64,000 nucleotides of DNA from an uncultured Pseudomonadales bacterium. GTDB lineage: Bacteria > Patescibacteriota > Microgenomatia > UBA1400 > PJMF01. The stretch is taken from contig CAZVBO010000003.1 of assembly GCA_964625685.1 (NCBI GenBank), forward strand, positions 64,298 to 128,297, written 5' to 3'. Positions 1 to 36,208 of this stretch are shown here, piece by piece. The stretch's first letter is position 1; each line of letters starts with the position of its first letter. The notes under the pieces are model-generated. The model was not told the DNA's origin. It was given only the letters and a program-made list of their open reading frames with translations, and did no database searches. The position numbers were made by a program, and so were the translations under genes.

Positions 1-2586
1 CACTTTTTTAGATGATGGATCGAAACTAACATATTCACCAGTCTTTAGATGCTTAACTCTAATGCCTCCTATTGCACCACGTCCTAATTCCCGAGCTCTT
101 TGTGCCCCGTGAGAAACCAATCCAGCGTTTTCAATCACTAAGCCATCAGCTTGAACAATTAGAGGATCATGACTCAAATTCATCTGAGAAGCGACCAAAA
201 CAATGGGTAATGCTTGGTTACGATAAAAAACAAGTACTTCTCTAGCTGCTTCGACAGTTTCAAAATCTTCGATATTAACGATGATGGCTTCGGCTAAAGC
301 CTGACCCTGAGCTAGAAGTTTGCCAAATAGTTCAAAATGATCAGTAAGATCCTCATCTTCTTCACCCAACTGATCGATATCAGATTCACGAATTACAGGT
401 GGTAAATCAACAAAGCTATATTTATCAAACCGTTCTTGACGCTCCGCTATTTGTGCCTCAAATCTTTCAGGATTTTGAACAAATTCTTCAATCTCTCTAG
501 GATCAAGTGAAAAAATATCCTGTTCATCGATATTATAACGATCAGCTATTTCAACCAAAACATCCCTTAAAAGCGAGTATTCTTTGACAAATTGGTATTT
601 CACTGTCTCTCTTAGAGCCATATATGTTTGAGAAGCTCGCATCACCCTCTGAAACTCTACCTGTAAGTCAGGTTGAGAATCTAGGAGAGACAAAAGCTGT
701 GCTTCACTTCTCTCACGATCAGATTTTTGTCTCTCAAACTCGGAAGTATATTGATCTCTGGCACTATAAATACCTTCAACGTAATTATGGAGCGCATTTT
801 GGTCATCCTTCAATCGAGGATGTCGAATTTCAAGCATCTCTCCAGTGCTGTAATGACCTACTACTCGTTGGCCAATAGTTAATGCACTATGAAAATCATC
901 TGCACCCGCAATAAATAGATTTGCTTGTGTGATTTCACTACCTTCTAAACCTTGATTAAGTCCTGCAAAAGTGGCATTCACTTCATCTGGGCTCATGCCA
1001 TAATGCTCACCTAGCATCCCTTGCAATCTTTGTGAGTAATAAAATCCTAAACGAGCTGATTTTACAAAATGAACGCATGAAACAGTTCGCATATGCTCGA
1101 GGATGGATTGAGCTTGAATTACTAATTGATCAACAGTTAATTCCTGTAGATCAACCGCTTCCATTGCTTGAATGAATTCGTCTGTATCAGGTTTTCCTTC
1201 CTGTAAGTACTCAGCCATGAATGTATCTGCATGTCTAGCCATTCTGGCTTTAAAGTCTTGGTAAGTTCTAAAATACTCAGCACCCTTTTCTTGACCGTAA
1301 CGACTGTTAAGATCTTCTAAAGTTGGATCCTGAAGATATAAGCCCATCTCTGGGTACTCACCTTTTTCTGGGTCCATTTGAATTTGATCCAAATACTCAC
1401 TTACTAGTGTTTGATTGTATTCTTCTCTAGTTTCTGGAAACCCTGCATAAAAAGTATGGGCATCCCGAGCGATACTAAAATATGGCTTTCCGCCTACATA
1501 ATGCATAAACCCTACTGATTCATCACCCAACGGGTAGCCCATTTGCTGACGACCTAATTGAATTGCACCAGGAACACCACCACTTCCAGTAAAGATATAT
1601 GCAAAAACTCCAAAATCCATTTCCTTTGGCCTTGGCAAAAGTTCACTGAAATTGCTATCACTTAGCACAACAGTTTCGGAATTAAGATCTTGCTTTTCTT
1701 GGTGAATAATTTGTCTGACTCTTTCCTGTGTGTGTTGCACAATATCTTCACGACTCATTTCTAGATTGATCCCATTAACTTCTGTAGTAAGTGTTCTAGC
1801 CTGCAAAATATAAAGTTGTCCATCCTGAATGGCAAACTCGATATCTTGTGGAAGATTATCGAATGACTCTTTGATTTGAAGTGCTAGTTCAGACATATCT
1901 TCCACTTGCTCCTCAGGAATGCTAACTAGATCTGTATTTTTAGATTTGGTAATTCCTTTTTGTGTTGGAGAATAAATTAAAGTGCTCCCCTCAGTAATAC
2001 CATCAACTATCTGATTACCAAAACCAGTCGTATATTGGACTAAAATGCCTTCACCATCGACATCGGTATATATGACTCCTGAAATATCTGGTTCAATCAA
2101 TCTTTGCAATACAACAGCCATCTCAACTTGTGACCCTCCATTTTGATGAAGACTCAAATACTCTTGTACTTGTTGAGATTGTGCTTGTTCGTAAATCGCC
2201 GTCAAAGCCTCTTCAATAGATTGATCAGGAGATTGTAAATAAAATGTTTCAAATACTCCTGCCATACTCAAATCACGACCATCTTCACAAGTAGCAGAGC
2301 TACGAACAGCTACTTTCCCGCCCATTGATTTACGAATTCTTTCAAGCTCACGAATCAGTGAGGAATCAATTTGTCCAGTTTGCTGATAATGAATGAATGC
2401 TTCAGTAGAAACGCCAACAGCGGCTGGAACTGGAAAACCAGCGTGTGTTAGCTCGGCTAAATTTTTTGCTTTACCACCTACTAGATGCCCGTGTCCATTA
2501 ACCATTTTTTCAATGGTCAAAATATGATTGTGTCTCGGGACAATCATTTCATGATTGTATTTTTTATCTCTTTCTCTTCTTTGCAT
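1..2586 (-). CDS. PEP-utilizing enzyme, PEP synthase / rifampicin-phosphotransferase-like; N-terminal ATP-grasp region and C-terminal mobile His domain; C-terminus truncated by the window edge
   Basis: The minus-strand frame is open from a start near 2586 (MQRRKRDKKYNHEMIVPRHNHILTIEKMVNGHGHLVGGKAKNLAEL...) to position 1. A sampled internal stretch (revcomp of 1490-1640) has no stops. Near the window start the frame encodes VSHGAQRARELGRGAIGG, matching the phosphohistidine motif TSHAAIVARELGIP of PEP-utilizing enzymes. The His domain lies more than 800 residues from the N-terminus, as in ~860-aa RPH-like proteins rather than classical ~790-aa PpsA. Only small plus-strand ORFs are listed in this interval, consistent with them being antisense. 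Confidence 0.7.
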   Translation of the reverse strand, partial: MQRRERDKKYNHEMIVPRHNHILTIEKMVNGHGHLVGGKAKNLAELTHAGFPVPAAVGVSTEAFIHYQQTGQIDSSLIRELERIRKSMGGKVAVRSSATCEDGRDLSMAGVFETFYLQSPDQSIEEALTAIYEQAQSQQVQEYLSLHQNGGSQVEMAVVLQRLIEPDISGVIYTDVDGEGILVQYTTGFGNQIVDGITEGSTLIYSPTQKGITKSKNTDLVSIPEEQVEDMSELALQIKESFDNLPQDIEFAIQDGQLYILQARTLTTEVNGINLEMSREDIVQHTQERVRQIIHQEKQDLNSETVVLSDSNFSELLPRPKEMDFGVFAYIFTGSGGVPGAIQLGRQQMGYPLGDESVGFMHYVGGKPYFSIARDAHTFYAGFPETREEYNQTLVSEYLDQIQMDPEKGEYPEMGLYLQDPTLEDLNSRYGQEKGAEYFRTYQDFKARMARHADTFMAEYLQEGKPDTDEFIQAMEAVDLQELTVDQLVIQAQSILEHMRTVSCVHFVKSARLGFYYSQRLQGMLGEHYGMSPDEVNATFAGLNQGLEGSEITQANLFIAGADDFHSALTIGQRVVGHYSTGEMLEIRHPRLKDDQNALHNYVEGIYSARDQYTSEFERQKSDRERSEAQLLSLLDSQPDLQVEFQRVMRASQTYMALRETVKYQFVKEYSLLRDVLVEIADRYNIDEQDIFSLDPREIEEFVQNPERFEAQIAERQERFDKYSFVDLPPVIRESDIDQLGEEDEDLTDHFELFGKLLAQGQALAEAIIVNIEDFETVEAAREVLVFYRNQALPIVLVASQMNLSHDPLIVQADGLVIENAGLVSHGAQRARELGRGAIGGIRVKHLKTGEYVSFDPSSKKV

Positions 2587-2894
2587 TTTATTCCTTTATT
2601 TTTTTATTTCTTTCTCCCAATAAAAAATCCGCCAAGGAGGCAGATTAGGGGAGAAATATACAACTAACCAGCTCCTGCTTTATTTAGCTGAGCTGCCACC
2701 AAGAATAGTGATAAATAGTTGATTTATTTCTCATTACAGAAAACGAGTTTAACCTATCACTACTTCTTTGTAAACTAGCAAACTAGTACACAAGTGCAAA
2801 TAGATTGACATATATGGAAAAATAAGATCTATTCTGATATAATCTGAGCAATTTGCTTCTCGAGTAAATTAGCTCTTTAACAATTCATATCAGT

Positions 2895-2948
2895 CGGCAA
2901 CGCAGAGAGGTAAACAATGTTACTTTTTTGCGTTGCCGATTGGCAACA
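2895..2948 (+). promoter_or_regulatory. Leader structure with mutually exclusive hairpins (CGGCAACGCA...TGCGTTGCCG, and GTTGCC-GATT-GGCAAC) upstream of the membrane-protein gene; candidate operator or attenuator
   Basis: The 10-bp arms 2895-2904 and 2919-2928 pair. The GTTGCC segment (2922-2927) can instead pair with GGCAAC (2932-2937). The same palindrome recurs at 4153-4170. Confidence 0.35.
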
Positions 2949-2988
2949 CTAAAGTAAAAGCGCAACTAGTCCAAAAAAGGAGAAAAAC

Positions 2989-4011
2989 ATGGACGCGCAA
3001 CTAAGCAAAAGCAAGCCTCTCTGGTCAGTTTTCCTGATCGCATTGGGGTCAGCTCTGTTTCTGACCATCGAAAAAATCGTTGACAGTGTCATTAGCAATA
3101 ACTATGCCATTGCAAGCGATCCCATCACAGCGGCCTCAGCATACCTGTTTATCGGTGGCTGGTTTGGTCTGCTCGTTTCCATCGTTCTCGGTAAAGTTCT
3201 GGGTCGGCGTATTCCGGGTCACACCAAAATCGCCTTACCCAGCGCACTGCCGATGCGTCTTTCAGTTTTCGCTGGCATCTCGGCGGCCTTTGCCACTCTG
3301 CTGTTCCTCTGGGGCAATCAGCTCTTTGACCTCAGCATCATGGTAGCCATCTCAAACGGCTACGTATTGATGATCGTCATCTACGAGTGGATGGCTGGTA
3401 AGATCAAGGCTAACAAGTTCTTGCTCCCTGGCCTACTGACCGTGGTGAGCACGGTGCTTGTGGCATTCAACCCTGAGTGGTGGAATGACAGTGCGGTACT
3501 GCATGATGAAGCAGCGAAGTTGTTGATCATCTTCCTCGGCTTCAATCTGTTGGTCGCTTTTGATCGGCTGGTTACCAAGCCTGCCGTCGATCATAGCGAT
3601 CCCATCAATGTGCAGGTTGTCCGTATTGGTACACTCGCTATCACGGGGACTCTGTCTGCCTTCGTTTTGGCAATTACCCGTCAGGAATTCCCAGCCTTTG
3701 TGGAAGCATGTTCGAATATCATCACGTCTCCCGCTGTGTACTTCTTCCTGTTTTTGCTGTTCGCAGCAGTTTTTCTGGGCCAGGTTCTGGAACTGTGGGC
3801 GAAGCAGATCAACGTTGATGTATCCAGCATCGTGATCGTAATCGGACTCCATGTCGGTTTGGGATTTGTGGCCGCGTTGGTCATCGATGCCATTGCTCCC
3901 GGATTTGTAGGTGAGGTACCCGCAGAATGGACCACGCGAATCGTGCGCTTAATCGGTGTTGCCGGTTTGATCTTTGCCACTGTTCTCTTGCAGAACAAAA
4001 AGGCGAAGTAA
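2989..4011 (+). CDS. Polytopic integral membrane protein (~10 predicted TM helices), possible transporter; family unassigned
   Basis: 340-aa ORF with an AGGAG-like RBS (aaaaaggagaaaaac ATG). Hydrophobic helices throughout. GC-richer codon usage than the flanks. Confidence 0.55.
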   Translation: MDAQLSKSKPLWSVFLIALGSALFLTIEKIVDSVISNNYAIASDPITAASAYLFIGGWFGLLVSIVLGKVLGRRIPGHTKIALPSALPMRLSVFAGISAAFATLLFLWGNQLFDLSIMVAISNGYVLMIVIYEWMAGKIKANKFLLPGLLTVVSTVLVAFNPEWWNDSAVLHDEAAKLLIIFLGFNLLVAFDRLVTKPAVDHSDPINVQVVRIGTLAITGTLSAFVLAITRQEFPAFVEACSNIITSPAVYFFLFLLFAAVFLGQVLELWAKQINVDVSSIVIVIGLHVGLGFVAALVIDAIAPGFVGEVPAEWTTRIVRLIGVAGLIFATVLLQNKKAK

Positions 4012-5383: not shown

Positions 5384-5422
5384 AGACTGGTCTATTCACC
5401 TCTCGATGATCTTCATTCACGC

Positions 5423-6031
5423 TCAGCGTGGCTGAATTCCCATCTTTTGTAATGCATCTCGTTCTTCGTACTGAATGACCAGCTTTCCTGCAACTTGCTC
5501 TTCGCGAGCGAATTGCTCTCGAATGACCTGCGTTTTCCTGGTTGAACTCCAACCACTTGGATTGTGTTCTTCGATCCGGTAGCCAGATTGAGCCAACCAA
5601 TTTGCTGAGTATTGAGGGTCTTCTTGCTCATAAAAGAAGATAGCCTCAATAACACCGGGATTTGCTGGCTCATCCATGATGTTTTCAAAACCTGGTGGAC
5701 GGTAGCTGAACTGAAGCTCTGGGCATTGGTGTCCTTTGAATCGCCAGCACTCTACGGTTATTTGTTGACCAGGTTCCAGGATGTATCCGAGACCTTGCTC
5801 GAGCATCTCGAGACCGTCAACTATGCACAGGCCGTCCATGCTGACCACTGCAACGGCACGACGATTGCTATTATTTCTTAGGGAGATTGAAAAGCTTGCT
5901 CCCTTAGGACCATGAACGAATACTTCTTCATTGTGGAGATACTCTGTGAGAGTAATTCCACCCATCTTAATTCCCATACTGAACTGTGAATCTTGTGAAA
6001 TCACGATCTTTCTCCTTTGATTTTGATGCAT
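5423..6031 (-). CDS. Hypothetical protein (202 aa)
   Basis: Complete ORF, convergent with trpS and followed by a terminator. No family recognised. Confidence 0.4.
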   Translation of the reverse strand: MHQNQRRKIVISQDSQFSMGIKMGGITLTEYLHNEEVFVHGPKGASFSISLRNNSNRRAVAVVSMDGLCIVDGLEMLEQGLGYILEPGQQITVECWRFKGHQCPELQFSYRPPGFENIMDEPANPGVIEAIFFYEQEDPQYSANWLAQSGYRIEEHNPSGWSSTRKTQVIREQFAREEQVAGKLVIQYEERDALQKMGIQPR

Positions 6032-6186
6032 TAACAGAGAGATGATTTTGGCACAAACAATTTTAAAACTTTCTCAATGCAGGCGATCTGCAAAAGAAGT
6101 TCACCGGTTCATACCAAAATAACTCTCTGCTCTATGTTAAAGAGCGAAAAGTACCCGAACATTATAGCTTATGAGGTAAAAAATCT

Positions 6187-6681
6187 CTATTCGACAGGAT
6201 TATCTTGCTTGTGAATACCCGCTTTTATTTTTTCTGAACCCTTTTTAAACATATCCTCTTCAGTTAAGGGGCTCATCTTTATAGTTGTGGTATATTCCTC
6301 ATGTAAAGATTGTGTTGCCTTGGTTAACTCTTCATCACTCATTGTTTCAGACAAAATCTCTTTTAAGAATCTTGCCTTATGTTTTAAAGCGGTGAAATTA
6401 TGACCTGCGGTACTGAATTCTTTATGTTTCTTTGATGGATCGAGTACACCAGAAATTGCTGCTATGGCTGCAGTAAAAACCGAAAACCAAATAGTCCATT
6501 CAGGAAAAACACCAGCTCCTGTTAAAATTCCACTGATCGCAGATGCTGTAGCGGGGACTATTTCAAAGATGTACTTTGTCCTCCTTGCACGTTTTGCTGA
6601 GAGATAGTGTGATTCAGCGATGTATTCACAATTATCTCTAATAACCTCACATTCGTTAACTAACTTTTTTTTCAATGTCAT
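6187..6681 (-). CDS. Small 2-TM membrane protein, SLATT-like candidate effector partnered with the upstream nucleotidyltransferase
   Basis: 164 aa. Two adjacent hydrophobic helices (IVPATASAISGILTGAGVFPEWTIWFSVFTAAIAAISGVL). Its start overlaps the stop of the upstream gene (ATGA overlap at 6678-6681). Confidence 0.45.
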   Translation of the reverse strand: MTLKKKLVNECEVIRDNCEYIAESHYLSAKRARRTKYIFEIVPATASAISGILTGAGVFPEWTIWFSVFTAAIAAISGVLDPSKKHKEFSTAGHNFTALKHKARFLKEILSETMSDEELTKATQSLHEEYTTTIKMSPLTEEDMFKKGSEKIKAGIHKQDNPVE

Positions 6682-7622
6682 TCAACCTCCTCTGGGAAAA
6701 CGGTTCCAAATAATTCCCTCCAACCTGCAATTCTTGTAGTCTCTGGCAGGTTGGGGTTCAAGAGAGATATCATATTTTCTGAAATAATTGGCAAAGCTCT
6801 GGTCAAATATGATAAGGCTGGCTCTCGGATATAACGATCTGGAAAGTGAGAGCCTTGGAAATTAATCGGTTTATTCAGGTATTTCTGCATTTCGTTCACC
6901 ATATCAATTAGAAGCAGCGGAGTATTGATTGGAAAGTTATTTGCAATTCTGCGAGCTATAAGTCCTGGAAGTAACTCCGTTGCAAGTATTTCTAAATGGA
7001 CAGAGTCTAACCCCTCAATATCTAGAACATGACGCTTTAGGGCTTTGAGAACTTTGATAAAGGGTATTAATCTTCCACCTGTGGCTTTATTCATTTCTGT
7101 CAAGTAAACAACCTCAAAGTCGTAGTCAGCTATTTCCCAGCCATGTCCTTTCGCAACCCAATAACATCGGCCTTGTTGATAGGATTGAGCCCCATCTAAT
7201 GAAAGGCCTATGTTGTCACGGTATGCGGGAACGAGTTCTACCTTGATTTTTCCATCACCGTAAGGGAAGGTTACCGTTGGAGCATCTTGAACAGGATTCA
7301 TTGCAGAATATCTGTTGCTTCTTTGCAGTAATTCATCAAGAGTTCTAAGTGCTTGGTTGGAACTCAAGCCAGAAGGACTTCTAGTAGAGAAGGTGCCAAG
7401 TATCACTAGGATATCAATATCGAAAACATCATCTGGTCTTGGATGCACTCTGGTTTGTCTTTGCAATGAACCAATAAGCTTTGTTTCTATGGCTCTTGTC
7501 GAGTTATTTTCAAGATAAGTTCTTACTGCATTATGTCGCTGCTCAACCAAGCCCTGGTGAGTATCCTTCAGCTCGAGGTTTGATTGCAGCTTGGTAAAAT
7601 GTTTTCCTAAAAAAATTGACAT
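6678..7622 (-). CDS. Nucleotidyltransferase-fold protein, SMODS / CD-NTase-like candidate second-messenger synthase
   Basis: GS...[DE]h[DE]h pattern: IGSLQRQTRVHPRPDDVFDIDILV. 314 aa. Translationally coupled to the downstream 2-TM gene. Confidence 0.5.
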   Translation of the reverse strand: MSIFLGKHFTKLQSNLELKDTHQGLVEQRHNAVRTYLENNSTRAIETKLIGSLQRQTRVHPRPDDVFDIDILVILGTFSTRSPSGLSSNQALRTLDELLQRSNRYSAMNPVQDAPTVTFPYGDGKIKVELVPAYRDNIGLSLDGAQSYQQGRCYWVAKGHGWEIADYDFEVVYLTEMNKATGGRLIPFIKVLKALKRHVLDIEGLDSVHLEILATELLPGLIARRIANNFPINTPLLLIDMVNEMQKYLNKPINFQGSHFPDRYIREPALSYLTRALPIISENMISLLNPNLPETTRIAGWRELFGTVFPEEVE

Positions 7623-7831
7623 ATTTATTAACTTTACTTATATGGCAATTTTACAATATAAAACCGGATATCCCAATTACAAAACGTGCTCTGCCTGCAG
7701 TGCTACCAATGCTACCAGCACCAGATAGCATTCAATCCTTCTGGACCCTGCAAACATGGTAAGACTGGCAACAAAAAGCCCCATCCATAAGATGAGGCCT
7801 TCATTAGCGTTTTTATAAAAAGAACTTGCTA

Positions 7832-8299
7832 TTACAGTCCAACGCTGTCAGCACCGTAAGCAGCTTGTTCAGTGGTGAAACCTTCAAATTCTAGTTGTTT
7901 TATAAGACCATCTCTTGAGAAGCCTGACAAATCTTGATAGCTTTTAGCCTTTTTGGCAGCCTGTTCATTCCAGTCTGGACTAATTTTATCTACTGCGTAG
8001 GTAGCATCTTCTGTTGAGAATTTTTCAAATTCGAGCTGCTTGATTAAGCCACTTCTTGAAAAACCTGTCATACTGAGGTAAGAATTTGCTTTTCTAACAG
8101 CATTCTTCTGTGCTGTAGTCTCATTGGAAGTTTCTTCGACTTCGGCTGCTTCCTTAGCGTCACCTTTTTCCATTACTTCTGCTGATGGAGTTGAGTTATC
8201 AGATTTAGGTGTTTCATCTCCTGAACCAGCGATGGCGCCAATAACAAAGAGTACTACTAATGCGATAGCACCCCATTTGAGTAATTTTTTCATATTCAT
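7832..8299 (-). CDS. Ltp-family (phage superinfection-exclusion type) membrane-anchored protein with two tandem repeat domains
   Basis: N-terminal TM/signal region. Two repeats of KA(N/K)SY..(M/L)(T/S)GFSR.GLIKQLEFE.F(S/T)(T/E)E.A.Y.(V/A)D, matching the host cell surface-exposed lipoprotein (Ltp) repeat. Confidence 0.55.
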   Translation of the reverse strand: MNMKKLLKWGAIALVVLFVIGAIAGSGDETPKSDNSTPSAEVMEKGDAKEAAEVEETSNETTAQKNAVRKANSYLSMTGFSRSGLIKQLEFEKFSTEDATYAVDKISPDWNEQAAKKAKSYQDLSGFSRDGLIKQLEFEGFTTEQAAYGADSVGL

Positions 8300-8360
8300 C
8301 CTTTATTTGGTATTTCTATCTGGGTGGTTCCAATATTATCACAATCTTTCTATATATGGA

Positions 8361-8636
8361 ATGGCTAAATATGGAAAGCACAACCAGAATAAAGATGTGC
8401 CAATAAGTATCAAAAATGACCAGTATCTGCCATATCGTGAGAAGCTTGGTGAAAGAATCAAGGACCTCAGGAAGAAGCGTGGACACACTCAGGAAAGCTT
8501 TGCTCTTGATGTAGTAAAGATGAACGTGTCTTATTTGGCGAAGATTGAAAACGGTTACGTCAACACATCTGTAAACTACCTTATCCGCATCGCCAAGGGC
8601 CTGAATGTGAAGGTCCGTGACTTGATTGAGTTCTAA
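8361..8636 (+). CDS. XRE-family (Cro/C1-type HTH) transcriptional regulator
   Basis: HTH signature ...GHTQESFALDVVKMNVSYLAKIENGYVNTSVNYLIRIAKGLNV. Start taken at MAKYGKH; the long ORF from 8124 is rejected. Confidence 0.65.
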   Translation: MAKYGKHNQNKDVPISIKNDQYLPYREKLGERIKDLRKKRGHTQESFALDVVKMNVSYLAKIENGYVNTSVNYLIRIAKGLNVKVRDLIEF

Positions 8637-8722
8637 ACTTCCTTTTTTTTGCTTCACTTTCGTGCTTTTTACTGGTAATCTGGTCTAACTCGTATTCAAA
8701 AAGTGTAAAAAAGTATCGAACC

Positions 8723-9769
8723 ATGCCAAAACTACCGTCAAAAAAAGATAACGAAGCAATTGAAGGGGAAATAATATCACCCTCAGAATTAAACGAAATT
8801 TCTAAGCTGGGAAAAGCAATTGGCAGTCAAATAATCCCAGACCTTAAACCCATTATATTTTCTCCTCCTAATCTAAATGATTCCTCCCTGTTTAAAGCTA
8901 TCCAAACTACTTCGTCAATATCGAAAGCCCTATCTCCCACTGTTTTTACTACTGAAATACCAACGAATGATTTGGTAAATAGTCTTAATCTAGGTATAAG
9001 TTTCTACAAAAAATTTGGTGAGGTCATAAGTAACACTATGAAAAAGTGGACTACAATGTTTGATGTAGTCCAGCTGTTGCAAGAGAAACTTGCCAAAATA
9101 GTTGAAGTAATTACAAAGCCACTAATAGATCCATCTTTTTTTAGAATTGTTACACCAGCTATCCATATTGGTCAAAAATATCACGAACAAGATAGTTACA
9201 CAGCTTTACCTCACTCAACTGATAATATTGATAGCTCTCAAAGGTATCTTGAAGAAAGAAGAAGGAAAGAAAACAGGCTACTTGATTTGCAAATTGCTTT
9301 TTATGAAAGGCAGATTGGTTTATCTCAAGGCAGCAAACCTGGTACTGTCAGAATGACACAAGAGGTCAGGCCACTCAGTGCTGTTAATTTAAGCAACCCT
9401 ACGAAAATGTTTCAGTTAAATGAGCCTTCCCAAGTAGTTAATTGGGGAAAGCTATCACTTAATATCAACACAGGTCTATCTACTTTTGGAGAACATACTC
9501 ATCGCTATAAGTTAAATGGACCTCAATTTAAGTTGCTAAAACTTCTTATTGAGAAAAAAGGCTCAGAAGTAAAGTGGAGCGAGTTCTTTGCGGCCGTTCC
9601 GAAACAACTAGAAGATAAAAATGATTTTAATGAAAAAAGAGAATACATCAAGCAAAAAATCAGAGAGATAAGACGATACTATAAGATCAATACTCAGACC
9701 AATCCCGAATCTGAAGTTTTTCTTCCTACAGGAGATGGTTATAAGTTAATCACTCCTATCCACTCCTAA
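8723..9769 (+). CDS. Hypothetical protein (348 aa), AT-rich, phage/plasmid-like
   Basis: Complete ORF. No recognisable domain. Confidence 0.4.
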   Translation: MPKLPSKKDNEAIEGEIISPSELNEISKLGKAIGSQIIPDLKPIIFSPPNLNDSSLFKAIQTTSSISKALSPTVFTTEIPTNDLVNSLNLGISFYKKFGEVISNTMKKWTTMFDVVQLLQEKLAKIVEVITKPLIDPSFFRIVTPAIHIGQKYHEQDSYTALPHSTDNIDSSQRYLEERRRKENRLLDLQIAFYERQIGLSQGSKPGTVRMTQEVRPLSAVNLSNPTKMFQLNEPSQVVNWGKLSLNINTGLSTFGEHTHRYKLNGPQFKLLKLLIEKKGSEVKWSEFFAAVPKQLEDKNDFNEKREYIKQKIREIRRYYKINTQTNPESEVFLPTGDGYKLITPIHS

Positions 9770-10003
9770 CCACTCTTTTCCCCTTTTGACCGCTCCCAGG
9801 TATGCAAAGCTAGACTTGCTCTACTTATTAAATACGTGGAGCACAAGTGGAAGACAATAATCTTCAAGCTATAACATCCCTTAGATCCCAACTTGATTCC
9901 AATGAGGAAGAAATTGTTGCAGGATCGTTTCATTCACTCGCAGAGCTCCTCTTGTCTTTTGTCAATAGATTAGAAGAACAAGAAAAAAGAAAGGAGCATT
10001 CAA

Positions 10004-10291
10004 GTGAAAAACATCAGTGAAATTGAGCTCATCCCTATAAGAGCCATAAATGGCCTTACTTTCTTCGCAAACTTTGTAATTGACCATGATTTTTATGTAG
10101 GCAATGTTGCCGTTTTTACAAAAAGAGACGGAACAGGTTTCCGCTGTGTTTACCCAACCAAAAAACTAAAAAATGGTTCTGAGGTTCCTATTTTTTACCC
10201 AATCAACTATGAAGTTGGACAACAAATTGAAGAAGCAATAACACAAAAAGCATATGAGCTCCTTATGCCAGAGGAAGGAGAGCTTATGTAA
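10004..10291 (+). CDS. Hypothetical small protein (95 aa)
   Basis: GTG start with an AAAGGAG RBS 9 nt upstream. Confidence 0.4.
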   Translation: MKNISEIELIPIRAINGLTFFANFVIDHDFYVGNVAVFTKRDGTGFRCVYPTKKLKNGSEVPIFYPINYEVGQQIEEAITQKAYELLMPEEGELM

Positions 10292-10339
10292 AAAATATTT
10301 TCAACCCAATCTTAGTTACAAATTACACAAAGGAAAAAT

Positions 10340-10726
10340 ATGTCATCAAAAAACATGACCCTAACCGTAAAAACAACCAGTGCTCCTGAGCCAATACCAA
10401 CAGGCGTATATCAGGCAAAGCTATCAGATCTTGAAAAGAGCGAAGGTGACTTTGGTCCCTACCTCAAACTCACGTTTCTCATTACTGACGGTGAGCACAA
10501 GGATACCGAGAGGACCACCATCGCCAGTATGAAACTCAGCACAGGTGCTAAGAATACCAAGCTCTACGATATCGTAGCCGCACTCATGGGTAAGTCACCT
10601 GAAACAAGTACTGAGATTGACCTGGGTGCTTTGGTAGGTAAACCCTGCCAGATACTGGTCAAAGATAAGCCTGGTGATAAAGATGGCTGGCAAATTATTT
10701 CAGAAGTAATGCCAGCAAGTAAATAA
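10340..10726 (+). CDS. Hypothetical protein (128 aa)
   Basis: AAAGGAAAAAT ATG ribosome-binding-site context. No family recognised. Confidence 0.4.
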   Translation: MSSKNMTLTVKTTSAPEPIPTGVYQAKLSDLEKSEGDFGPYLKLTFLITDGEHKDTERTTIASMKLSTGAKNTKLYDIVAALMGKSPETSTEIDLGALVGKPCQILVKDKPGDKDGWQIISEVMPASK

Positions 10727-10741
10727 AACGAAAGCAGGAGG

Positions 10742-13087
10742 GTGTGTCCGACTGGATGCACCCTCCCACAGATTGATATGTCTACTATAACAAACCGCAT
10801 ACCAGCAAACAATCAAGAATGGAGAGAACTTGGTGAGTACTACTTGAATCTTGGTTGGTCTATTATTCCAGTCACAAGTGACAAGAAACCGTTGATTAAG
10901 TGGAAGGAATTTCAAACCAAGCAACCAGCTACAGAACAAGTTGGTGAATGGGCTTCCAGCTCAAAGATAGCTGGCTATGCCCTCGTCACAGGCTCGATCT
11001 CTGGTGTTGTAGTTCTTGACCTTGATGAGGGTTCTGAATTTGACACCTCTACTTTACCTACTACGCCTTTCTCCCAAACTGGTTCTGGTGGCCGACACTA
11101 TTTCTTCAAATCACCTGATAAGACTATTAAAAATGCCGCTGGTTTTGTCAAAAACACTGACTTTCGAGGTGAAGGTGGCTATGCCATCTTGCCACCCAGC
11201 AAACATCCCTCTGGGAATCAATACTTTTGGCTGAGCAATCCAGAAGATACCGAATTGGCTGAAATGCCTGGGAGTCTTATCGACTCAATCAATGGTAACC
11301 AACAGTTAAAACTTAGCGTAAAAAGCGATGAAAATGTCTTTGAAGGTGTAGAAAAGTCTACACGTAATCACTCGGCTACTCAGGTAGCAGGATCGCTTCT
11401 CAGTCGTTACCCAAAAGACGAATGGGAAGCAGTCGTTTGGCCTCTGCTACAAGGTTGGAATACACAAAACAAACCACCTCTTTCAGCAACCGAGCTGAGA
11501 GCTGTATTTGACTCGATAGCCGAGCGTGAAGAAGGTCAGCCAGAACAAGATGAGGGAGGCTCCAATCGTCCCAGCCAAGCCAAACTGTTAGTTGAGATGG
11601 TCCTGGGCAGTAGTATCAAGCTTTTTACTAATCAGTTCCACGAGCCAGTCCTCACTTCACTTGAGACTGGATTCTTAACCTTCAAAATTAGTTCTTCCGC
11701 TACAAAACAGCTTCTCTTCAAGATGTTTTGGGATAGTGAAGGCAAACCACCTAGCTCCGAAGCTGTGAGCAATGCTATTACTACTCTCCAAGGCATTGCA
11801 ACCTATGACCGAGATAAAATCACTGTCTTCAATCGTGTCGGTAGACATAAAAACACAATCTACTATGACATTGGCGATGGCACTCATGTAATAGCTATCG
11901 ACAAAGACGGCTGGAGCATTGACAGTAGCTGCCCTGTCTACTTCAACCGTTTCTCTCACCAAAAACCACAAGTATTGCCCAAGCGTGGTGGCAATCTGGA
12001 AGAAATTCTTGCTTTCATGAACGTGCAGGACCAACAGCAAAAGTTACTAATCTTGACCTTCTTGGTTGTTAGCTTAATTCCAGATATCCCACGAGCCATG
12101 CTGGTACTTCATGGCGATCAGGGTTCGGCAAAATCAAGTCTGCTACGTATTCTCAGAGAAATGATTGATCCCAGCCAAGTGCCACTTCTCACTCCACCTG
12201 ACTCTATTCGTGAGTTGGTTCAGTTTGCCAGCCATCACTATGCCGTCTTTTTGGACAACCTCTCAACCTTGTCTGTTTCATTATCTGATGCCCTCTGCCG
12301 TTTGATAACTGGTGATGGTTTTACTAAAAGACAACTTTTTACTGATGATGAGGACGTACTCTATGCCTACAAGCGAGTGGCTGGCCTTTGTGGTATCAAC
12401 CAAGTCGCAACAAAAGCTGACCTGCTAGATCGTAGCATCATTGTGCCTTTAGAGCGAATATCTGACGGGGATAGACGTGAAGAAAAAAATCTGTGGCATC
12501 GTTTCAAAACAGACAAATCTCTTATTCTTGGAGCCTTATTTGATGCCGTAGCCGCTACTCTCCACACTGTACACGATATTGAACTTACTACCAAACCTCG
12601 CATGGCAGATTACTTCAAGTATGCCACAGCTGCAGCAATCCACTTGGGATATACCGAGCAAGATCTCTCTGATGCCTTCAATCAAAACGTCAAACAACAA
12701 AATGAAGAAGCCATCGACTCTTCACCTGTTGCTCAAACCATTATGGAGTTCATGAGGAACAAATCAAACCAAGAGCTACGCAGTTCAGATCTTTACAAAG
12801 AACTTTTTGAGATAGCTGAGAACCTCAAAATCAAACAGGGTTTTCCCAAATCACCCACTTGGCTGTGGCGGAAAATCAAAGATGTCCGACCTAATTTGAT
12901 GGCCTATGGCCTCAATGTCACCAAAGAAAAAATGGAGGATGGTACTTACATAAGAATCATAAAAACTGCCACCACTGCTTCCAGCACCTCTACATCAAAC
13001 AACTCTGGTCCTGAAAGCACTGGCAACACTGACAACAAAACCGTAGAAAACATGACCGAGGAGGAGATCGAGGAGGCACTCTTCTAA
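10742..13087 (+). CDS. Replication protein: N-terminal bifunctional primase-polymerase (PrimPol) domain plus C-terminal P-loop NTPase/helicase-like region
   Basis: PrimPol motifs VVVLDLDEG, GSGGRHYFF and DFRGEGGYAILPPS. Downstream Walker-A-like HGDQGSAKSS. GTG start at 10742 with AGGAGG just upstream; the alternative ATG is at 10778. Confidence 0.65.
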   Translation: MCPTGCTLPQIDMSTITNRIPANNQEWRELGEYYLNLGWSIIPVTSDKKPLIKWKEFQTKQPATEQVGEWASSSKIAGYALVTGSISGVVVLDLDEGSEFDTSTLPTTPFSQTGSGGRHYFFKSPDKTIKNAAGFVKNTDFRGEGGYAILPPSKHPSGNQYFWLSNPEDTELAEMPGSLIDSINGNQQLKLSVKSDENVFEGVEKSTRNHSATQVAGSLLSRYPKDEWEAVVWPLLQGWNTQNKPPLSATELRAVFDSIAEREEGQPEQDEGGSNRPSQAKLLVEMVLGSSIKLFTNQFHEPVLTSLETGFLTFKISSSATKQLLFKMFWDSEGKPPSSEAVSNAITTLQGIATYDRDKITVFNRVGRHKNTIYYDIGDGTHVIAIDKDGWSIDSSCPVYFNRFSHQKPQVLPKRGGNLEEILAFMNVQDQQQKLLILTFLVVSLIPDIPRAMLVLHGDQGSAKSSLLRILREMIDPSQVPLLTPPDSIRELVQFASHHYAVFLDNLSTLSVSLSDALCRLITGDGFTKRQLFTDDEDVLYAYKRVAGLCGINQVATKADLLDRSIIVPLERISDGDRREEKNLWHRFKTDKSLILGALFDAVAATLHTVHDIELTTKPRMADYFKYATAAAIHLGYTEQDLSDAFNQNVKQQNEEAIDSSPVAQTIMEFMRNKSNQELRSSDLYKELFEIAENLKIKQGFPKSPTWLWRKIKDVRPNLMAYGLNVTKEKMEDGTYIRIIKTATTASSTSTSNNSGPESTGNTDNKTVENMTEEEIEEALF

Positions 13088-13132
13088 TCTCCCCTCTACC
13101 CATAACTGTTACTAATAAACCAGGAGAAAACT

Positions 13133-13516
13133 ATGCAATGCACTTATATCAAAGCTAATAATCAACCTTGTAAGGCTCATGCCATGAAAGGAAGTGAGTT
13201 CTGTTTTACTCACAATCCCGAAACTCGTGATGAACACGCCCAAGCTGTAGTGCTTGGTGGACTCAACTCATCCAGAAAAGACAGCGTTGAGTTGCCTGCA
13301 ATTGATGTCCGTCAGCCTGATGGTGTGGTCCAGTTACTGGAAGAAACAATCAATGGCGTTCGTGATGGCAGTATCCCACCCAAAGTTGCCAGTACTGTTG
13401 GTTACTTGGCTGGACACTTACTAAAAGCCATTGAATCAGCAGATCTCGATAAACGATTAGAGGTGATTGAACGAGTGATTTTGGAACGCAAATCCATAAT
13501 GAAAGGTTCCAAATGA
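13133..13516 (+). CDS. Hypothetical protein (127 aa) with an N-terminal Cys/His cluster
   Basis: AGGAG RBS. C..C..H..C..H pattern in the first 30 residues. Confidence 0.4.
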   Translation: MQCTYIKANNQPCKAHAMKGSEFCFTHNPETRDEHAQAVVLGGLNSSRKDSVELPAIDVRQPDGVVQLLEETINGVRDGSIPPKVASTVGYLAGHLLKAIESADLDKRLEVIERVILERKSIMKGSK

Positions 13517-15021
13517 AAAACTTCTCTATCCAAGCTCTAGCTGGTGTCTTAACGGCAAAAGAACGAGCCAAAATCATTGCAGAATACATCGTCAAAGGTG
13601 ATGAGACTGGTGAAGATTTAGGCCATGAAATCAACAAGATAAAGATGAATATGAGCAATAATCAAATAACCGAATTCAACTTCTACATGGATATGATCCA
13701 AACCGTTCATGTGGTCATGGAAGCCGACTTTCAGACCATGTATTTACGCTTTTTTCTTTATTCTCAGCAACTCGAAAAAATATATCAGCAGTGGTCGATG
13801 AGTATCTACAGCCACTTCACTCGCCGAGATCTGAACTGGTTACCTAAAATTGTCACTCCACAAGGTTACCAAGAATTGTACGAAGAACAAAAAGCCCAAG
13901 AATTATCAGCTGTTTTCTCTCTAGAAACTTTGGCTGAACACGAGGCACTCGCCAAACTCCAGTCAGAAGGTTGGTGGAAAGACACCGATCTATTTATGGT
14001 CCACAAACAGCTGGTAGCTGATGCCAATAAAACCGAGGACCAACTGATTGATGAGTATCTTGACCATGTTGAAGAGCGATTAGCTGCTTATCTCGAATAC
14101 AAAGATAAGAAAAATGCCTTTCTACACCTTTATCAGGAATATGCAGAGTATGAAGGCAAAAGTCGTGACGAAATGAGAGAAATGGTGACAGCCAAGTATG
14201 ACTTTACTCCCACCGATCCAGCTGACACTCAAAAATGGCTTGGTGAGATTGAAAATCAAAAACAACGACTGCAAAAGCTGATTGACAATGGAGTGCTTGA
14301 AGCCGCCATAGTCGGCAATGAATTTGGTTTTTACGGGACCTCAGAGGATAAGGGCAAACCAGGAATCACAGCTACCAGTTGGTATAACTACTCAAAAAAG
14401 TACGATATAGGCTTCAACGATTTTGTTGATGATGTCGATAACCTCATTTACTTTTGCCACAACGATGTAGCTATTATTCAGACCAAACAGAGTCAAGAAA
14501 AGAAAACTGGTGAGCTTACTGCCAATATCATTAAGAAACGAATGCTTGAACACCTTGACCACTTCAACGCAATTACTTACGAACCAATAAGTGGTGATAA
14601 AAAATTGCACCTAGAAGCCAAGACCTTGGAACAAATTAAGCAGTTGCTTTTCTCAATATCAGTAATCAAATTAAGACTCCTTGCCTATATTAGAGTGATT
14701 GAAGCAGTTGAGAACTTTTACTTTGATGGTACTCAGATTGTGTCTCGTAAGACCTGGTATGCCAAAGCCGCTCAAGAGCACTATGATTTTATGCTCCAAC
14801 AACATCAGCAGTACGTTGATTTTGTCTACAACTATTTTGGCAACTTTACTATTGGCTCAGAGGACCCTATTTTTGACTGCCATGATGACATTCAATTCGC
14901 AGAACCAACCGAGGAAGAAATTCAAAAAGTCACTAAGGAGCAGATGAGCTTCATGTTAGAAAAGGCTACTAAAGATAGTCATTTTCGCCCATCACGAACT
15001 CCATTTGACGAAAGAGTATGA
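13513..15021 (+). CDS. Hypothetical protein (502 aa)
   Basis: ATGA overlap with the upstream gene (translational coupling). No domain recognised. Confidence 0.4.
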   Translation: MKNFSIQALAGVLTAKERAKIIAEYIVKGDETGEDLGHEINKIKMNMSNNQITEFNFYMDMIQTVHVVMEADFQTMYLRFFLYSQQLEKIYQQWSMSIYSHFTRRDLNWLPKIVTPQGYQELYEEQKAQELSAVFSLETLAEHEALAKLQSEGWWKDTDLFMVHKQLVADANKTEDQLIDEYLDHVEERLAAYLEYKDKKNAFLHLYQEYAEYEGKSRDEMREMVTAKYDFTPTDPADTQKWLGEIENQKQRLQKLIDNGVLEAAIVGNEFGFYGTSEDKGKPGITATSWYNYSKKYDIGFNDFVDDVDNLIYFCHNDVAIIQTKQSQEKKTGELTANIIKKRMLEHLDHFNAITYEPISGDKKLHLEAKTLEQIKQLLFSISVIKLRLLAYIRVIEAVENFYFDGTQIVSRKTWYAKAAQEHYDFMLQQHQQYVDFVYNYFGNFTIGSEDPIFDCHDDIQFAEPTEEEIQKVTKEQMSFMLEKATKDSHFRPSRTPFDERV

Positions 15022-15040
15022 AATCAGAGAAAATAGCTAT

Positions 15041-15112
15041 GCACTCAACAATCAGCGATAGAACTTTTTTAATGGCCGTCTTGGACAACCGAAGTTCTTT
15101 CGCGTTGAGTGC
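15041..15112 (+). repeat. Imperfect inverted repeat (GCACTCAAC...GATAGAAC / GTTCTTTCG...GTTGAGTGC) around a ~29-bp core, immediately upstream of the serine recombinase gene; candidate recombination (att) site
   Basis: Arms 15041-15064 and 15094-15112 seen directly in the sequence. The position mirrors attP-next-to-int layouts of large serine recombinase elements. Confidence 0.35.
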
Positions 15113-15138
15113 ACCAGGGCGGCCATTTAAGTATAAGG

Positions 15139-16773
15139 ATGAATATGTATCAAAGCACAGACACCTCACAGTTTGACCACGTTAAGAACTGTCTCATTTA
15201 CGCTCGTGTTAGCACTAGCCGCCAAGTTGAGGAAGGTCACTCACTTGAAGATCAAATTGAACGCCTAACTAAATTTGCTAAAGACCGTGAATGGCGAATC
15301 CTCGAAGCGTTCAAAGACGGCGGAAAAAGTGGTGGTTCAACATCAGGACGAGCTGAATTCAATCGTATGCTGGAACGTTGTGCTGATGATCCTGACGTTC
15401 ATGCAGTTTTACTCGAAGAAACTGATCGCTTTGCTCGTAATGCTCAAGACCACTTGGCCGTCAAATCATTTCTCAAAAAACATAACGTGGTCCTGATTGC
15501 TACCCAGCAGCCTAACTTTGGTGATGACCCTGTGGGCAACTTTGTTGACCTCATTATGGCTGGAGCCAATCAGCTGCAAAGAGAAATAACTGGTGTTAAG
15601 ACTAAACGTACTATGGTTGGTTTGGCAGAAAAAGGATTACAACCAGGTGGGGCTGTTCTTGGCTATCTCAACTCATATGAGAAAGGTGTGCCCTGGAAAA
15701 TAGATAAAGAGCGAGTGTACTATGTAAAAGAAGCCTTCCGCCGATATAACACTGGTAACTACTCTATCCATACCCTTGGCGATGAAATTTATGCAGAAGG
15801 CTTTCGTACTCGAAATGGCAAACGTGTTCATTCAAGCAACATTCAAAAAATCCTAACCGATGTTCGTTATCTTGGTTGGGTCAAGTACGATGGCAAAATC
15901 TATAAAAATGGCCAGCACCCTCAACTTATCAATATCACGGAATTTAAAAAAGCGGAGGCAATTATGAAAAAACACAACAAAGGAGCAAATAGGTCACGAA
16001 AGCACAACTGGTTTTTGGCAGGGTTAGTCTACTGCCAACACTGTGGCTCATTGATGTCTGGTGAGAAGCATGAAAAAAGCACTGGCAAAATCTACAAGTA
16101 CTATCGCTGTATGGGACCTAAAAATCATGGTCATACTTGCAACGAACCCTATGCCAACATCGAGAAGGTCCATGACCAACTGTACAAATGGATCACTGGC
16201 TTGGAATTCACCGACACCTTTTTTGATGGCCTTCGCCAAGAGCTAATGTCTCTCATGGAAAACCAAGGCGATACTGTAAAAGACAGACTCGACACTCTCC
16301 AAAAGCGTAAAGAATCAATAGAAAAGAAAATGGATAAGCTGGAAGATCAAATGCTTTCAGAGGTTATTCCACAGGATAGAATCGAGAAAAAGTACAAACC
16401 CTTGCGAGATGAGCTAACAGCCGTTGAAGCCAAAATCGAGAAACTCAATATGCCTTCAAATAATATGGATGAGGAAAAGATCGAAACAATTATCAAGTTC
16501 ATGAAACGCTTGCCAGAACTTTATGATGCCTTCAACAAAAAAGAACGTAAACAATTTCTTAAGTGGTTCACCACAAAGATCATGATAAAGGATAAGAAAA
16601 TTGTTGATATTGCCTATACACCAGGCTTTCAAGCCATGGTTGATAGAGACATCGTTCGGATAAGCGAAACGTGGCTCGAGAAATGGTATGAATTCGGAAA
16701 AATTGATTGGGTCAGCGAGCTGGAATATCCGGAGTGGACGGTAAAGGAAGTGGGGAGGTTCTTACAATATTGA
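15139..16773 (+). CDS. Large serine recombinase (resolvase/invertase N-terminal catalytic domain, recombinase domain, zinc ribbon, coiled coil)
   Basis: CLIYARVSTSRQ (catalytic Ser region), ...DGGKSG..., and zinc ribbon CQHCGSLMSG...YYRC. About 545 aa. Start moved to MNMYQ behind an AAGGA RBS. Confidence 0.85.
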   Translation: MNMYQSTDTSQFDHVKNCLIYARVSTSRQVEEGHSLEDQIERLTKFAKDREWRILEAFKDGGKSGGSTSGRAEFNRMLERCADDPDVHAVLLEETDRFARNAQDHLAVKSFLKKHNVVLIATQQPNFGDDPVGNFVDLIMAGANQLQREITGVKTKRTMVGLAEKGLQPGGAVLGYLNSYEKGVPWKIDKERVYYVKEAFRRYNTGNYSIHTLGDEIYAEGFRTRNGKRVHSSNIQKILTDVRYLGWVKYDGKIYKNGQHPQLINITEFKKAEAIMKKHNKGANRSRKHNWFLAGLVYCQHCGSLMSGEKHEKSTGKIYKYYRCMGPKNHGHTCNEPYANIEKVHDQLYKWITGLEFTDTFFDGLRQELMSLMENQGDTVKDRLDTLQKRKESIEKKMDKLEDQMLSEVIPQDRIEKKYKPLRDELTAVEAKIEKLNMPSNNMDEEKIETIIKFMKRLPELYDAFNKKERKQFLKWFTTKIMIKDKKIVDIAYTPGFQAMVDRDIVRISETWLEKWYEFGKIDWVSELEYPEWTVKEVGRFLQY

Positions 16774-16786
16774 GAGGAAGGAGATG

Positions 16787-17902
16787 TCAATTGAACTTCT
16801 TAGAGTTCTTCTTATTTATTGGGGTAATCGCACCAAGTGAAGATTCTTCATCGGGAGTAGATACATTTCTATAAAACTTCTTCGCTTCTGAATTAAATTT
16901 TTCTACCATATTTCTCATCCTTGAGTTCTCGGCAACCTTACCTTTAATTTCAATTACACGAGCATTTTCTAGGAACCTAGTCATCTGATCCAGCTTAGAA
17001 AAGAATGAGTCAGCCGTTTCCGGCCTATCTCGAGCAACAACTTCCTTTGCTGCTGGGATAGCCTCTTCAGGAGATTCATCAAGAAATACCTTTCTCGCAG
17101 GTTTACACCTCAAAATATCAGCTAAGTCTTTCCTCACGTCATAAGCAGCTGAACGAACTCTCCCAGCTAATACCCATTTAATAAACTTTTCATCAGTTAA
17201 TAAATCTGGACTTTCTTTCTTGATTTTTTGCAAATCGGCACTGCGACAATATTCATAAAAGATGCTAAATTTTTTAATCTCAGCCTCTTTATCATCAATC
17301 TTGGAAATATTGGGGAGATACCTATCTCGCATTAACTCATAGGCGGCAATTTGGGTCCGTAAGGAACTAACATTCATTCCAACTATTTGGGAGATTTCCT
17401 GAAGACTCATCCCATTCTCATCGCTCATTTTATAAATATAGCTAGCTTTTTCGTATGGATCCCATTGTGTTTTCCCCTCAATATGAAGTTTTCCCAACAG
17501 TAAAAAGAGATCTCTAACGTCTATTTCTTGAAGCAGCCTTTTTGCCCGAATCTTTCTCCATTTGTTCTTTTGTCCTTCCGGAGCATTCTTATACAAGTGC
17601 CTATAAGCACAAAGCCTTGTATTACCCTCAACAGCTTGTCCATTTAGCACTAATATTTCTTCAAGTAGCCCTCCATTTATTCTTATGTCTTCAGCTAAGT
17701 CTTTTGTTGAGTCCAACGCCCATAAACTCTTTTCAATAAGATCTTGTCCAAGGTCTTTGCCGTATTTACTTAAAACATAGTTTATTCTTGGATTTTCCGG
17801 ATAATAATCGAGTTGGAAGATATCTATTTCCTCAGTACTAACTGGGATCTTTTTATTCCCTATCGTCATGAAAGAAGTGGCTTGTTTATCTGGCATATCC
17901 AT
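16787..17902 (-). CDS. ParB/Srx-fold N-terminal domain protein with a C-terminal HTH-like region (ParB-like 1)
   Basis: ParB box-like motifs YYPENPR and GGLLEEILVL...EGNTRLCA. Shares the WDPYEKASY[IL] motif with the paralog at 19714-20730. Its start is 3 nt after the SNF2 stop. Confidence 0.55.
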   Translation of the reverse strand: MDMPDKQATSFMTIGNKKIPVSTEEIDIFQLDYYPENPRINYVLSKYGKDLGQDLIEKSLWALDSTKDLAEDIRINGGLLEEILVLNGQAVEGNTRLCAYRHLYKNAPEGQKNKWRKIRAKRLLQEIDVRDLFLLLGKLHIEGKTQWDPYEKASYIYKMSDENGMSLQEISQIVGMNVSSLRTQIAAYELMRDRYLPNISKIDDKEAEIKKFSIFYEYCRSADLQKIKKESPDLLTDEKFIKWVLAGRVRSAAYDVRKDLADILRCKPARKVFLDESPEEAIPAAKEVVARDRPETADSFFSKLDQMTRFLENARVIEIKGKVAENSRMRNMVEKFNSEAKKFYRNVSTPDEESSLGAITPINKKNSKKFN

Positions 17903-17905
17903 ATT

Positions 17906-19318: not shown

Positions 19319-19319
19319 A

Positions 19320-19712: not shown

Positions 19713-19713
19713 A

Positions 19714-20730: not shown

Positions 20731-20739
20731 GATTGATTA

Positions 20740-34706: not shown

Positions 34707-34712
34707 TTTTAT

Positions 34713-35303: not shown

Positions 35304-35317
35304 ATTTGATTCCCTTC

Positions 35318-35716: not shown

Positions 35717-35719
35717 AGT

Positions 35720-36202: not shown

Positions 36203-36208
36203 AGATTT

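Follow-up and report, generated by a model that had tools for sequence, protein, structure and literature searches.

The gene pair at positions 6187-7622 (minus strand) of the DNA analysed here, a 64,000-nucleotide stretch of contig CAZVBO010000003.1 (hereafter the window) from an uncultured bacterium that is probably a member of the Patescibacteria or candidate phyla radiation (CPR), is very probably a minimal two-gene operon of the type I cyclic-oligonucleotide-based antiphage signalling system (CBASS). It encodes a cGAS/DncV-like nucleotidyltransferase (CD-NTase) of the SMODS family with 314 amino acids (aa) and, directly downstream, a SLATT_4-family effector of 164 aa with two transmembrane (TM) helices. 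The first-pass annotation had proposed a CBASS-like conflict system of a SMODS synthetase and a SLATT protein. The family profiles, the folds, the acidic triad and the linkage of the two genes all agree with this proposal, and it is refined here to a type I CBASS whose 2TM effector is of the SLATT family, an architecture that is already recognised. Searches with Pfam, PADLOC and NCBIfam gave no match to CBASS accessory genes (Cap2/Cap3 of type II, HORMA/TRIP13 of type III, Cap9-12 of type IV) in the flanking open reading frames (ORFs) at 5423-6031, 7832-8299 and 8723-9769. The system was assigned to type I because Cap2/Cap3, HORMA/TRIP13 and other accessory genes are absent.

The program-made ORF list places the cyclase gene at 6678..7622 (314 aa) and the SLATT gene, downstream of it, at 6187..6681 (164 aa), both on the minus strand and exactly as first annotated. 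The overlap between the stop of the first gene and the start of the second, also described earlier, was seen in the sequence. The cyclase stop codon TGA (6678-6680) and the SLATT start codon ATG (6679-6681) form an ATGA overlap of 4 nucleotides (nt) at 6678-6681. Read on the minus strand, the junction is GAG GAG GTT GAA TGA, in which the SLATT ATG consists of the last A of GAA and the TG of the stop codon. A Shine-Dalgarno sequence (GAGGAGG, 6686-6692) lies inside the cyclase gene, with a 4-nt spacer to the SLATT ATG. The Shine-Dalgarno sequence, the spacer and the ATGA overlap make up a translational-coupling junction at 6678..6692 (minus strand).

The cyclase and the effector belong to one operon, as indicated by the 4-nt overlap, by the Shine-Dalgarno sequence inside the first gene and by the fact that the neighbouring Ltp gene has a terminator of its own. 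This intrinsic terminator (7771..7802, minus strand) has a 13-bp hairpin followed by UUUUUGUU. The RNA fold of the hairpin reached -17 kcal/mol (z = -3.27), and 0 of 200 shuffles folded equally well; it was found by RNA folding and is absent from the list of the simple terminator scan. Because the Ltp gene ends in its own hairpin and U-tract, the pair forms a transcription unit of its own. A promoter of its own, within the 209-nt spacer between the Ltp and cyclase genes, probably drives transcription of the pair. A candidate sigma-70-like promoter, TTGGGA-17-TAAAAT, sits in this spacer at 7648..7676 (minus strand). It gave 9 of 12 matches in the consensus scan and was kept as a weak candidate only, promoter-like sites near the pair showing no enrichment over shuffles. 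No terminator was identified 3' of the SLATT gene, where the 91 nt downstream fold like shuffles (z = -1.3). Across the whole window, the Rfam scan detected a single RNA, a tRNA-Asn, and nothing in the vicinity of the pair.

The 314-aa protein was assigned to the CD-NTases by Pfam, PADLOC, structure prediction and a profile search of the PDB. It scored 52.5 bits against the Pfam family SMODS (PF18144), above the gathering score of 26.5 bits (E = 8.5e-14), and all 105 cyclase homologues carry PF18144 in precomputed annotation. It matched 29 CBASS 'Cyclase' models of PADLOC. The best of them was PDLC00823 (E = 3.8e-23), which aligned protein residues 7-311 with model positions 7-283 of 285. The nucleotidyltransferase signature that had been noted in this protein, GS...DxD, lies in residues 50-73 (IGSLQRQTRVHPRPDDVFDIDILV). 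When 30 homologues with identities as low as 36% were aligned, G51, S52, D68, D70 and the third acidic residue D136 proved invariant. Together they make up the GS motif and the complete acidic triad found in Pol-beta-type and cGAS-like enzymes.

The AlphaFold2 (AF2) model of the cyclase, built from the same 30-homologue alignment, was confident (pLDDT 92.3, pTM 0.90). D68 and D70 lie on the strand 67-78, and D136 closes the strand 126-136. When the model was compared with the PDB by Foldseek, the 40 or more best matches were all bacterial CD-NTases with TM-scores of 0.6-0.77. The best matches were the structures of Pseudomonas aeruginosa CdnD (PaCdnD; 6P8U, 6P82 and 6P8J; E = 1.5e-13, TM-score 0.70-0.76), followed by CdnG, CdnB, Enterobacter CdnD02, CdnC, CdnE and DncV; enzymes other than CD-NTases ranked far lower. 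A sequence-profile search of PDB chains with the cyclase returned the same PaCdnD chains (E = 6e-15) in an end-to-end alignment. The protein is thus predicted to have the full two-lobed cGAS/DncV-like fold, with a nucleotidyltransferase core and a C-terminal helical lobe. For the CD-NTase clade of the cyclase, the evidence is that of the nearest solved structure. Among annotated proteins, the closest plasmid relatives (22-28% identity) are named 'CBASS oligonucleotide cyclase'. In an exhaustive HMMER scan of 1.84 billion cluster representatives, 113 clusters scored E <= 1e-30 and 1185 scored E <= 1e-3. These numbers describe a modest, mostly metagenomic subclade.

The 164-aa protein was assigned to the SLATT_4 family by NCBIfam, PADLOC, hydropathy and AF2. 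It scored 71.6 bits against the NCBIfam model SLATT_4 (NF033632; cut-off 55). All 23 partner proteins from the related loci matched this model at E <= 0.01, and 17 of the 23 matched Pfam SLATT_4 (PF18186) at the same threshold. Five '2TM Effector' models of PADLOC were matched at E <= 1e-11, including PDLC00712 (E = 7.5e-20), and the top PADLOC match was RTasSLATT (reverse-transcriptase-associated; PDLC03811, E = 1.5e-24). A word-index homology search with the 164-aa protein alone found 2 relatives. To recover the family, a profile made from the partners found at the loci was required; it gave 130 SLATT relatives, many of which bear the name 'SLATT domain-containing protein' or the PF18186 annotation.

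The two adjacent TM helices reported at first are supported by both hydropathy and the model. The Kyte-Doolittle peaks are at residues ~38-59 and ~62-82. The AF2 model, from a 45-sequence alignment, is all-alpha and confident (pLDDT 92.1, pTM 0.82), with helices at 3-55, 61-80, 82-113, 116-136 and 142-153. The predicted layout is a cytoplasmic N-terminal helix leading into TM1 (~38-59), a short outer loop, TM2 (~62-82) and a cytoplasmic helical part (82-153). Basic clusters flank the TM pair, KRARRTK before TM1 and SKKHK after TM2. By the positive-inside rule, we infer that both soluble segments are cytoplasmic, where the nucleotide signal would be. In the family alignment, E10, H25, Y130, P138 and T140 were invariant, and Y20, E23, K100, H101, R104, H157 and D160 were near-invariant. 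All conserved polar residues fall in the cytoplasmic segments. They likely form the surface for ligand binding and oligomerisation.

We surveyed the pair in GTDB with one genome per species and obtained 36 loci with relatives of the cyclase. The hosts include Patescibacteria, Nitrospirota, Alpha- and Gammaproteobacteria, Acidobacteriota, Bacillota, Omnitrophota, Zixibacteria, Cloacimonadota and others. A SLATT homologue was the ORF directly 3' of the cyclase homologue on the same strand at 34 of the 36 loci (E from 2e-103 to 1e-4). The pair therefore does co-occur in related genomes, and since it recurs in 34 of 36 independent genomes, the pairing is not due to chance. The junction geometry is conserved as well: the two genes overlap at 15 of the 32 junctions measured (at 11 by 4 nt), and at another 15 they are separated by 0-17 nt. 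The divergence of the cyclase from the window protein correlates with that of the SLATT protein (Spearman 0.64, p = 1e-4). Compared with the locus in a metagenome-assembled genome (MAG) of Candidatus Woesebacteria (L001), the ratio of nonsynonymous to synonymous substitution rates (dN/dS) was 0.043 for the cyclase gene and 0.055 for the SLATT gene (dS 0.42-0.61). Such low values (~0.05) indicate strong purifying selection, by which both genes are kept. The lengths of 314 and 164 aa are unchanged in relatives at 77-96% identity.

The two remaining loci had other arrangements. In an Acidobacteriaceae genome (L027, 5974-7815), the cyclase homologue has no SLATT partner, and a converging gene of 342 aa abuts the cyclase; this could be a case of effector loss or replacement. 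A cyclase-SLATT fusion was considered at this locus and rejected, the long ORF being a read-through artefact in a GC-rich genome. The locus in an Anaeromyxobacteraceae genome (L032, 2676-4942) is a variant architecture. A second, different nucleotidyltransferase-like ORF (398 aa) directly follows the cyclase homologue, and a 205-aa SLATT-like 2-TM ORF on the opposite strand, within 2 kb, replaces the usual coupled SLATT gene. A fusion was rejected here too, the locus having this separate second nucleotidyltransferase-like gene and the opposite-strand 2-TM ORF instead.

The proposed mechanism is as follows. The 314-aa CD-NTase would be produced in an inactive or low-activity state. Phage infection would trigger it to make a cyclic oligonucleotide from nucleoside triphosphates, and this signal would bind the 164-aa SLATT_4 protein, translated together with the enzyme, at its cytoplasmic helical parts. 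Oligomers of the effector would then form in the inner membrane and breach it, and the infected cell would die or be arrested before it could release phage progeny (abortive infection). We infer the synthesis of a cyclic oligonucleotide, the phage trigger, signal binding and permeabilisation by SLATT, and abortive infection by analogy with known systems. A cyclic trinucleotide is a reasonable guess for the signal, because the closest solved relative, PaCdnD, is a clade-D enzyme.

Conflict systems in which a SMODS synthetase is combined with a SLATT 2-TM effector were reportedly predicted on computational grounds by Burroughs et al. in 2015. The window pair has exactly this architecture and is a further example, drawn from a divergent subclade. 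The Pfam family names SMODS and SLATT themselves reflect the association. Type I CBASS operons commonly pair CD-NTases of clades D, E and F with effectors of 2 or 4 TM helices (bioRxiv 10.1101/2023.05.21.541620). SLATT4 and SLATT6 are counted among the CBASS membrane effectors (PMC12480259). EcCdnF04-SLATT6 restricts phages of five families by at least 10,000-fold (bioRxiv 10.1101/2023.05.21.541620). EcCdnF04-SLATT6 and EcCdnF05-SLATT6, like the window pair, are two-gene operons in which the gene for a small SLATT 2-TM protein follows that for the CD-NTase, and accessory genes are missing. These EcCdnF-SLATT6 systems are experimentally protective against diverse double-stranded DNA phages. Their effector is SLATT6, whereas that of the window is SLATT_4; only 2 of the 23 partner proteins matched the SLATT_6 model, and weakly. 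The cyclase of the window is nearest among solved structures to the clade D enzyme PaCdnD (~20% identity), clade F not being among the references compared. The hosts of the EcCdnF-SLATT6 systems are E. coli, whereas the host here is an uncultured, probably CPR bacterium.

The CdnD of P. aeruginosa ATCC27853 (6P82, 6P8J and 6P8U) is similar in size (300 aa), and its GS and DxD motifs align with those of the window cyclase at an identity of 19-20%. Unlike the window pair, PaCdnD comes from a type III CBASS under the control of HORMA and Trip13 proteins, according to the titles of the PDB entries, and the partner effectors differ. The same effector superfamily includes the SLATT proteins associated with the DRT/UG-Abi reverse transcriptases and ThsH of type VII Thoeris. 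For ThsH, membrane oligomerisation on binding of cADPR has been proposed, and the literature describes ligand-triggered membrane disruption by SLATT proteins as what they are 'thought to' do. Whereas reverse transcriptases or TIR proteins are the partners in DRT and Thoeris, the gene upstream in the window encodes a CD-NTase. No reverse transcriptase or TIR gene was found near the pair in the ORF list or by Pfam.

Several observations weigh against the assignment to CBASS. The cyclase fell far below the cut-offs of the NCBIfam CBASS_cyclase equivalogs, with 67.7 bits for NF041117 and 13 bits for NF041116 against 200 bits. Members of its subclade are publicly annotated as 'hypothetical protein' or 'nucleotidyltransferase', and these labels fit with the failed equivalog cut-offs. 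These equivalog models are narrow, and a score below their cut-offs marks a divergent cyclase subclade rather than exclusion from the superfamily. On the effector side, the window protein is below the threshold of Pfam SLATT_4 (PF18186; 20.1 against 27 bits), although it passes that of NCBIfam SLATT_4. SLATT proteins also serve DRT reverse transcriptases and TIR/Thoeris systems, so membership in this effector family does not by itself point to CBASS. No solved structure like a SLATT protein was found by sequence or fold in the PDB copy searched, and for this reason the pore or oligomer mechanism of the effector is put forward as a hypothesis.

The pair sits at the edge of an AT-rich accessory region, as noted earlier: the GC content drops from 0.49-0.51 at 3-6 kb to 0.38 at 6-7 kb. 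This region was sharpened here to an integrative mobile island of ~10.6 kb (6190..16800), delimited by Pfam and PHROG matches, the limits of DNA similarity and the GC drop, and the CBASS pair (6187-7622, minus strand) is its terminal cargo. The gene next to the pair encodes the Ltp-type superinfection-exclusion neighbour of the first reading (7832..8299, minus strand), a surface lipoprotein with two PF07553 repeats (E = 1.5e-33) and a match to PHROG 4980 'superinfection exclusion' (E = 4.4e-45). It is followed by an HTH_3 regulator (8340-8636), a 348-aa protein (8723-9769), a SpoVG-like protein (10004-10291), an SSB-like protein (10340-10726) and a PrimPol/PriCT_1 primase of 781 aa (10742-13087). 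The regulator, the SpoVG-like and SSB-like proteins and the primase were assigned by Pfam and PHROG. Two proteins of unknown function, of 127 aa (13133-13516) and 502 aa (13513-15021), precede a large serine recombinase (15109-16773; PHROG 'integrase', E = 1e-91).

Two further copies of the island were seen. The Woesebacteria MAG (L001) has 92% DNA identity to the window from 13619 down to 6194, ending at the SLATT stop codon. On an 890-kb JGI contig (L037), the cyclase is 77% identical and the island gene order is the same; the similarity has one end at window position 6193 and the other at 16677, so that it covers most of the recombinase gene. The chromosomal flanks of the island differ among the three genomes, and all three copies retain the pair. 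Because the similarity does not extend past the SLATT stop codon and the flanks differ, these comparisons identify the pair as conserved terminal cargo of a ~10.6-kb integrative element that lies at different sites in the three genomes. The slot between the HTH regulator and the pair varies, with Ltp in the window and a DUF4352/DUF5067 protein in L037 (9293-9838), which suggests a swappable position for surface-exclusion cargo.

There was no sign that the island is a known phage: none of 50,697 phage records was matched by a megablast of 5400-17000. A phage origin of the cyclase was likewise rejected after tblastn against the same records gave no match. Pfam and PHROG recognised no virion genes on the island. 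A search of 5900-17100 for att repeats gave only short, imperfect, chance-like two-copy matches and no flanking direct repeats; this lack is expected because the island recombinase is a serine recombinase. With no virion genes recognised and with different chromosomal sites in L001 and L037, the island is satellite-like or a cryptic integrative element.

The location of the pair raises the question of which replicon benefits. The same signalling pair might serve mainly the island, as an addiction or stabilisation module or as an inter-element weapon, for example of a satellite-like island that acts together with Ltp against non-helper phages. We consider this improbable. The pair does lie at the very end of the ~10.6-kb island beside the swappable superinfection-exclusion slot, it is present in every island copy seen, and the island resembles phage satellites in that it encodes a primase, a recombinase and an HTH regulator while recognisable virion genes are missing. 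However, most of the other 33 loci have the pair in unrelated contexts across many phyla, which points to a self-contained module, and no helper phage, packaging gene or evidence of excision was found. Benefit to the island would in any case alter the beneficiary and not the molecular mechanism.

It is very unlikely that the 314-aa protein is a nucleotidyltransferase without a diffusible signal (an MNT-type antitoxin or a CCA-adding-like enzyme) whose 2-TM partner acts as a toxin or holin-like protein by direct interaction. The GS/DxD core is common to nucleotidyltransferases of the Pol-beta superfamily, the cyclase has a weak match to an archaeal CCA-adding enzyme (E = 0.021), one SLATT relative marginally matches a phage holin family (E = 0.002), and toxin-antitoxin pairs are also typically tightly coupled in translation. 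MNT antitoxins are much smaller than the 314-aa cyclase. An MNT-like toxin-antitoxin system was discounted, since the similarity extends across both lobes of the CD-NTase architecture (PADLOC 7-311, PaCdnD over its full length, TM-score 0.70-0.77), and enzymes other than CD-NTases appear only far down the fold list. Decay is still harder to credit: a reduced genome and a possibly defective element would suit an inactive remnant without current function, but both ORFs are intact with the catalytic residues kept, dN/dS is ~0.05 at a dS of 0.4-0.6 against L001, and the gene lengths are kept in relatives. The earlier proposal named the lack of a nucleotidyltransferase fold or of the acidic triad as grounds for abandoning it; the fold was modelled with confidence and the triad is invariant. 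We therefore retain the assignment of the pair to type I CBASS.

The window is chromosomal, with genes for tryptophanyl-tRNA synthetase (TrpRS), DnaG, glutamate dehydrogenase and malic enzyme. An identical cyclase with the same TrpRS flank occurs in the runs SRR13617032, 42, 45 and 46. Between TrpRS and the island end lies a 202-aa ORF (5423-6031, minus strand; 193 aa in Logan contigs) with a host-like GC content of ~0.49. It had no match in Pfam, NCBIfam, PHROGs or PADLOC and is absent from the island flanks in L001 and L037. Positions 1-3000 of the window have a GC content of 0.37-0.40, so the GC-rich TrpRS block (3-6 kb) has AT-rich DNA on both sides. No ORF of at least 90 aa is listed in 1-3000, the list excluding ORFs that run off the window end.

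A second AT-rich block (16787-21591, minus strand) directly adjoins the island. It encodes two proteins that are weakly PD-Lambda-5_A/ParB-like (16787-17902 and 19714-20730, minus strand), a SNF2 helicase with a ZorD/DpdE-like helicase region (17906-19384, minus strand; E = 1e-59) and a Dam-class N6-adenine methyltransferase (20740-21591, minus strand); the block is possibly a further cluster of defence or mobile-element genes. Another large serine recombinase is encoded at 50009-51595 (plus strand), and the 3' end of its gene overlaps the only tRNA gene of the window, the tRNA-Asn found by Rfam (51581-51655, minus strand). The 90% cluster of this recombinase includes proteins of Woesebacteria and Patescibacteria. 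It is the names of these relatives and of the closest island copy that point to Patescibacteria/Woesebacteria as the probable host lineage. The recombinase/tRNA-Asn site (50009-51655) probably marks another integrated element. Heavy-metal genes are clustered at 32568-40940, with a P-type ATPase that has an HMBD domain (32568-34706), a cation-efflux gene (37269-38159) and a P-type ATPase (39003-40940). A DNA counterpart of the cation-efflux gene, 66% identical, lies beside the island in L037 (11797-20939). Because this counterpart flanks the island in L037, the hosts of the window and of L037 look related, with the island at different positions.

Operons of a CD-NTase and a SLATT protein have already been recognised, and the window pair adds one from a divergent subclade. 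Proteins that are publicly 'hypothetical' or 'nucleotidyltransferase' can now be labelled as type I CBASS with a SLATT_4 effector. The pair also documents CBASS in a probable Patescibacteria/CPR genome; in a full-text search of the literature, CBASS and Patescibacteria were seldom mentioned together, and never in a title or abstract. The SLATT_4 family is small, well conserved and confidently modelled and could serve structural and ligand-binding work, as there is no solved SLATT in the PDB copy searched. Carried as the outermost cargo of a compact mobile island, beside a swappable slot for an exclusion gene, the module is an example of defence genes that move as mobile-element cargo. It is conceivable, though unlikely, that the poorly annotated cyclase subclade (~113 clusters at 50% identity, centred on CPR and uncultured bacteria) makes an undescribed signal that is read by SLATT_4 and that the module spreads among Patescibacteria on a satellite-like island. 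If so, the island would bundle CBASS with a surface-exclusion protein and would provide a portable two-layer immunity for an episymbiont with a minimal genome.

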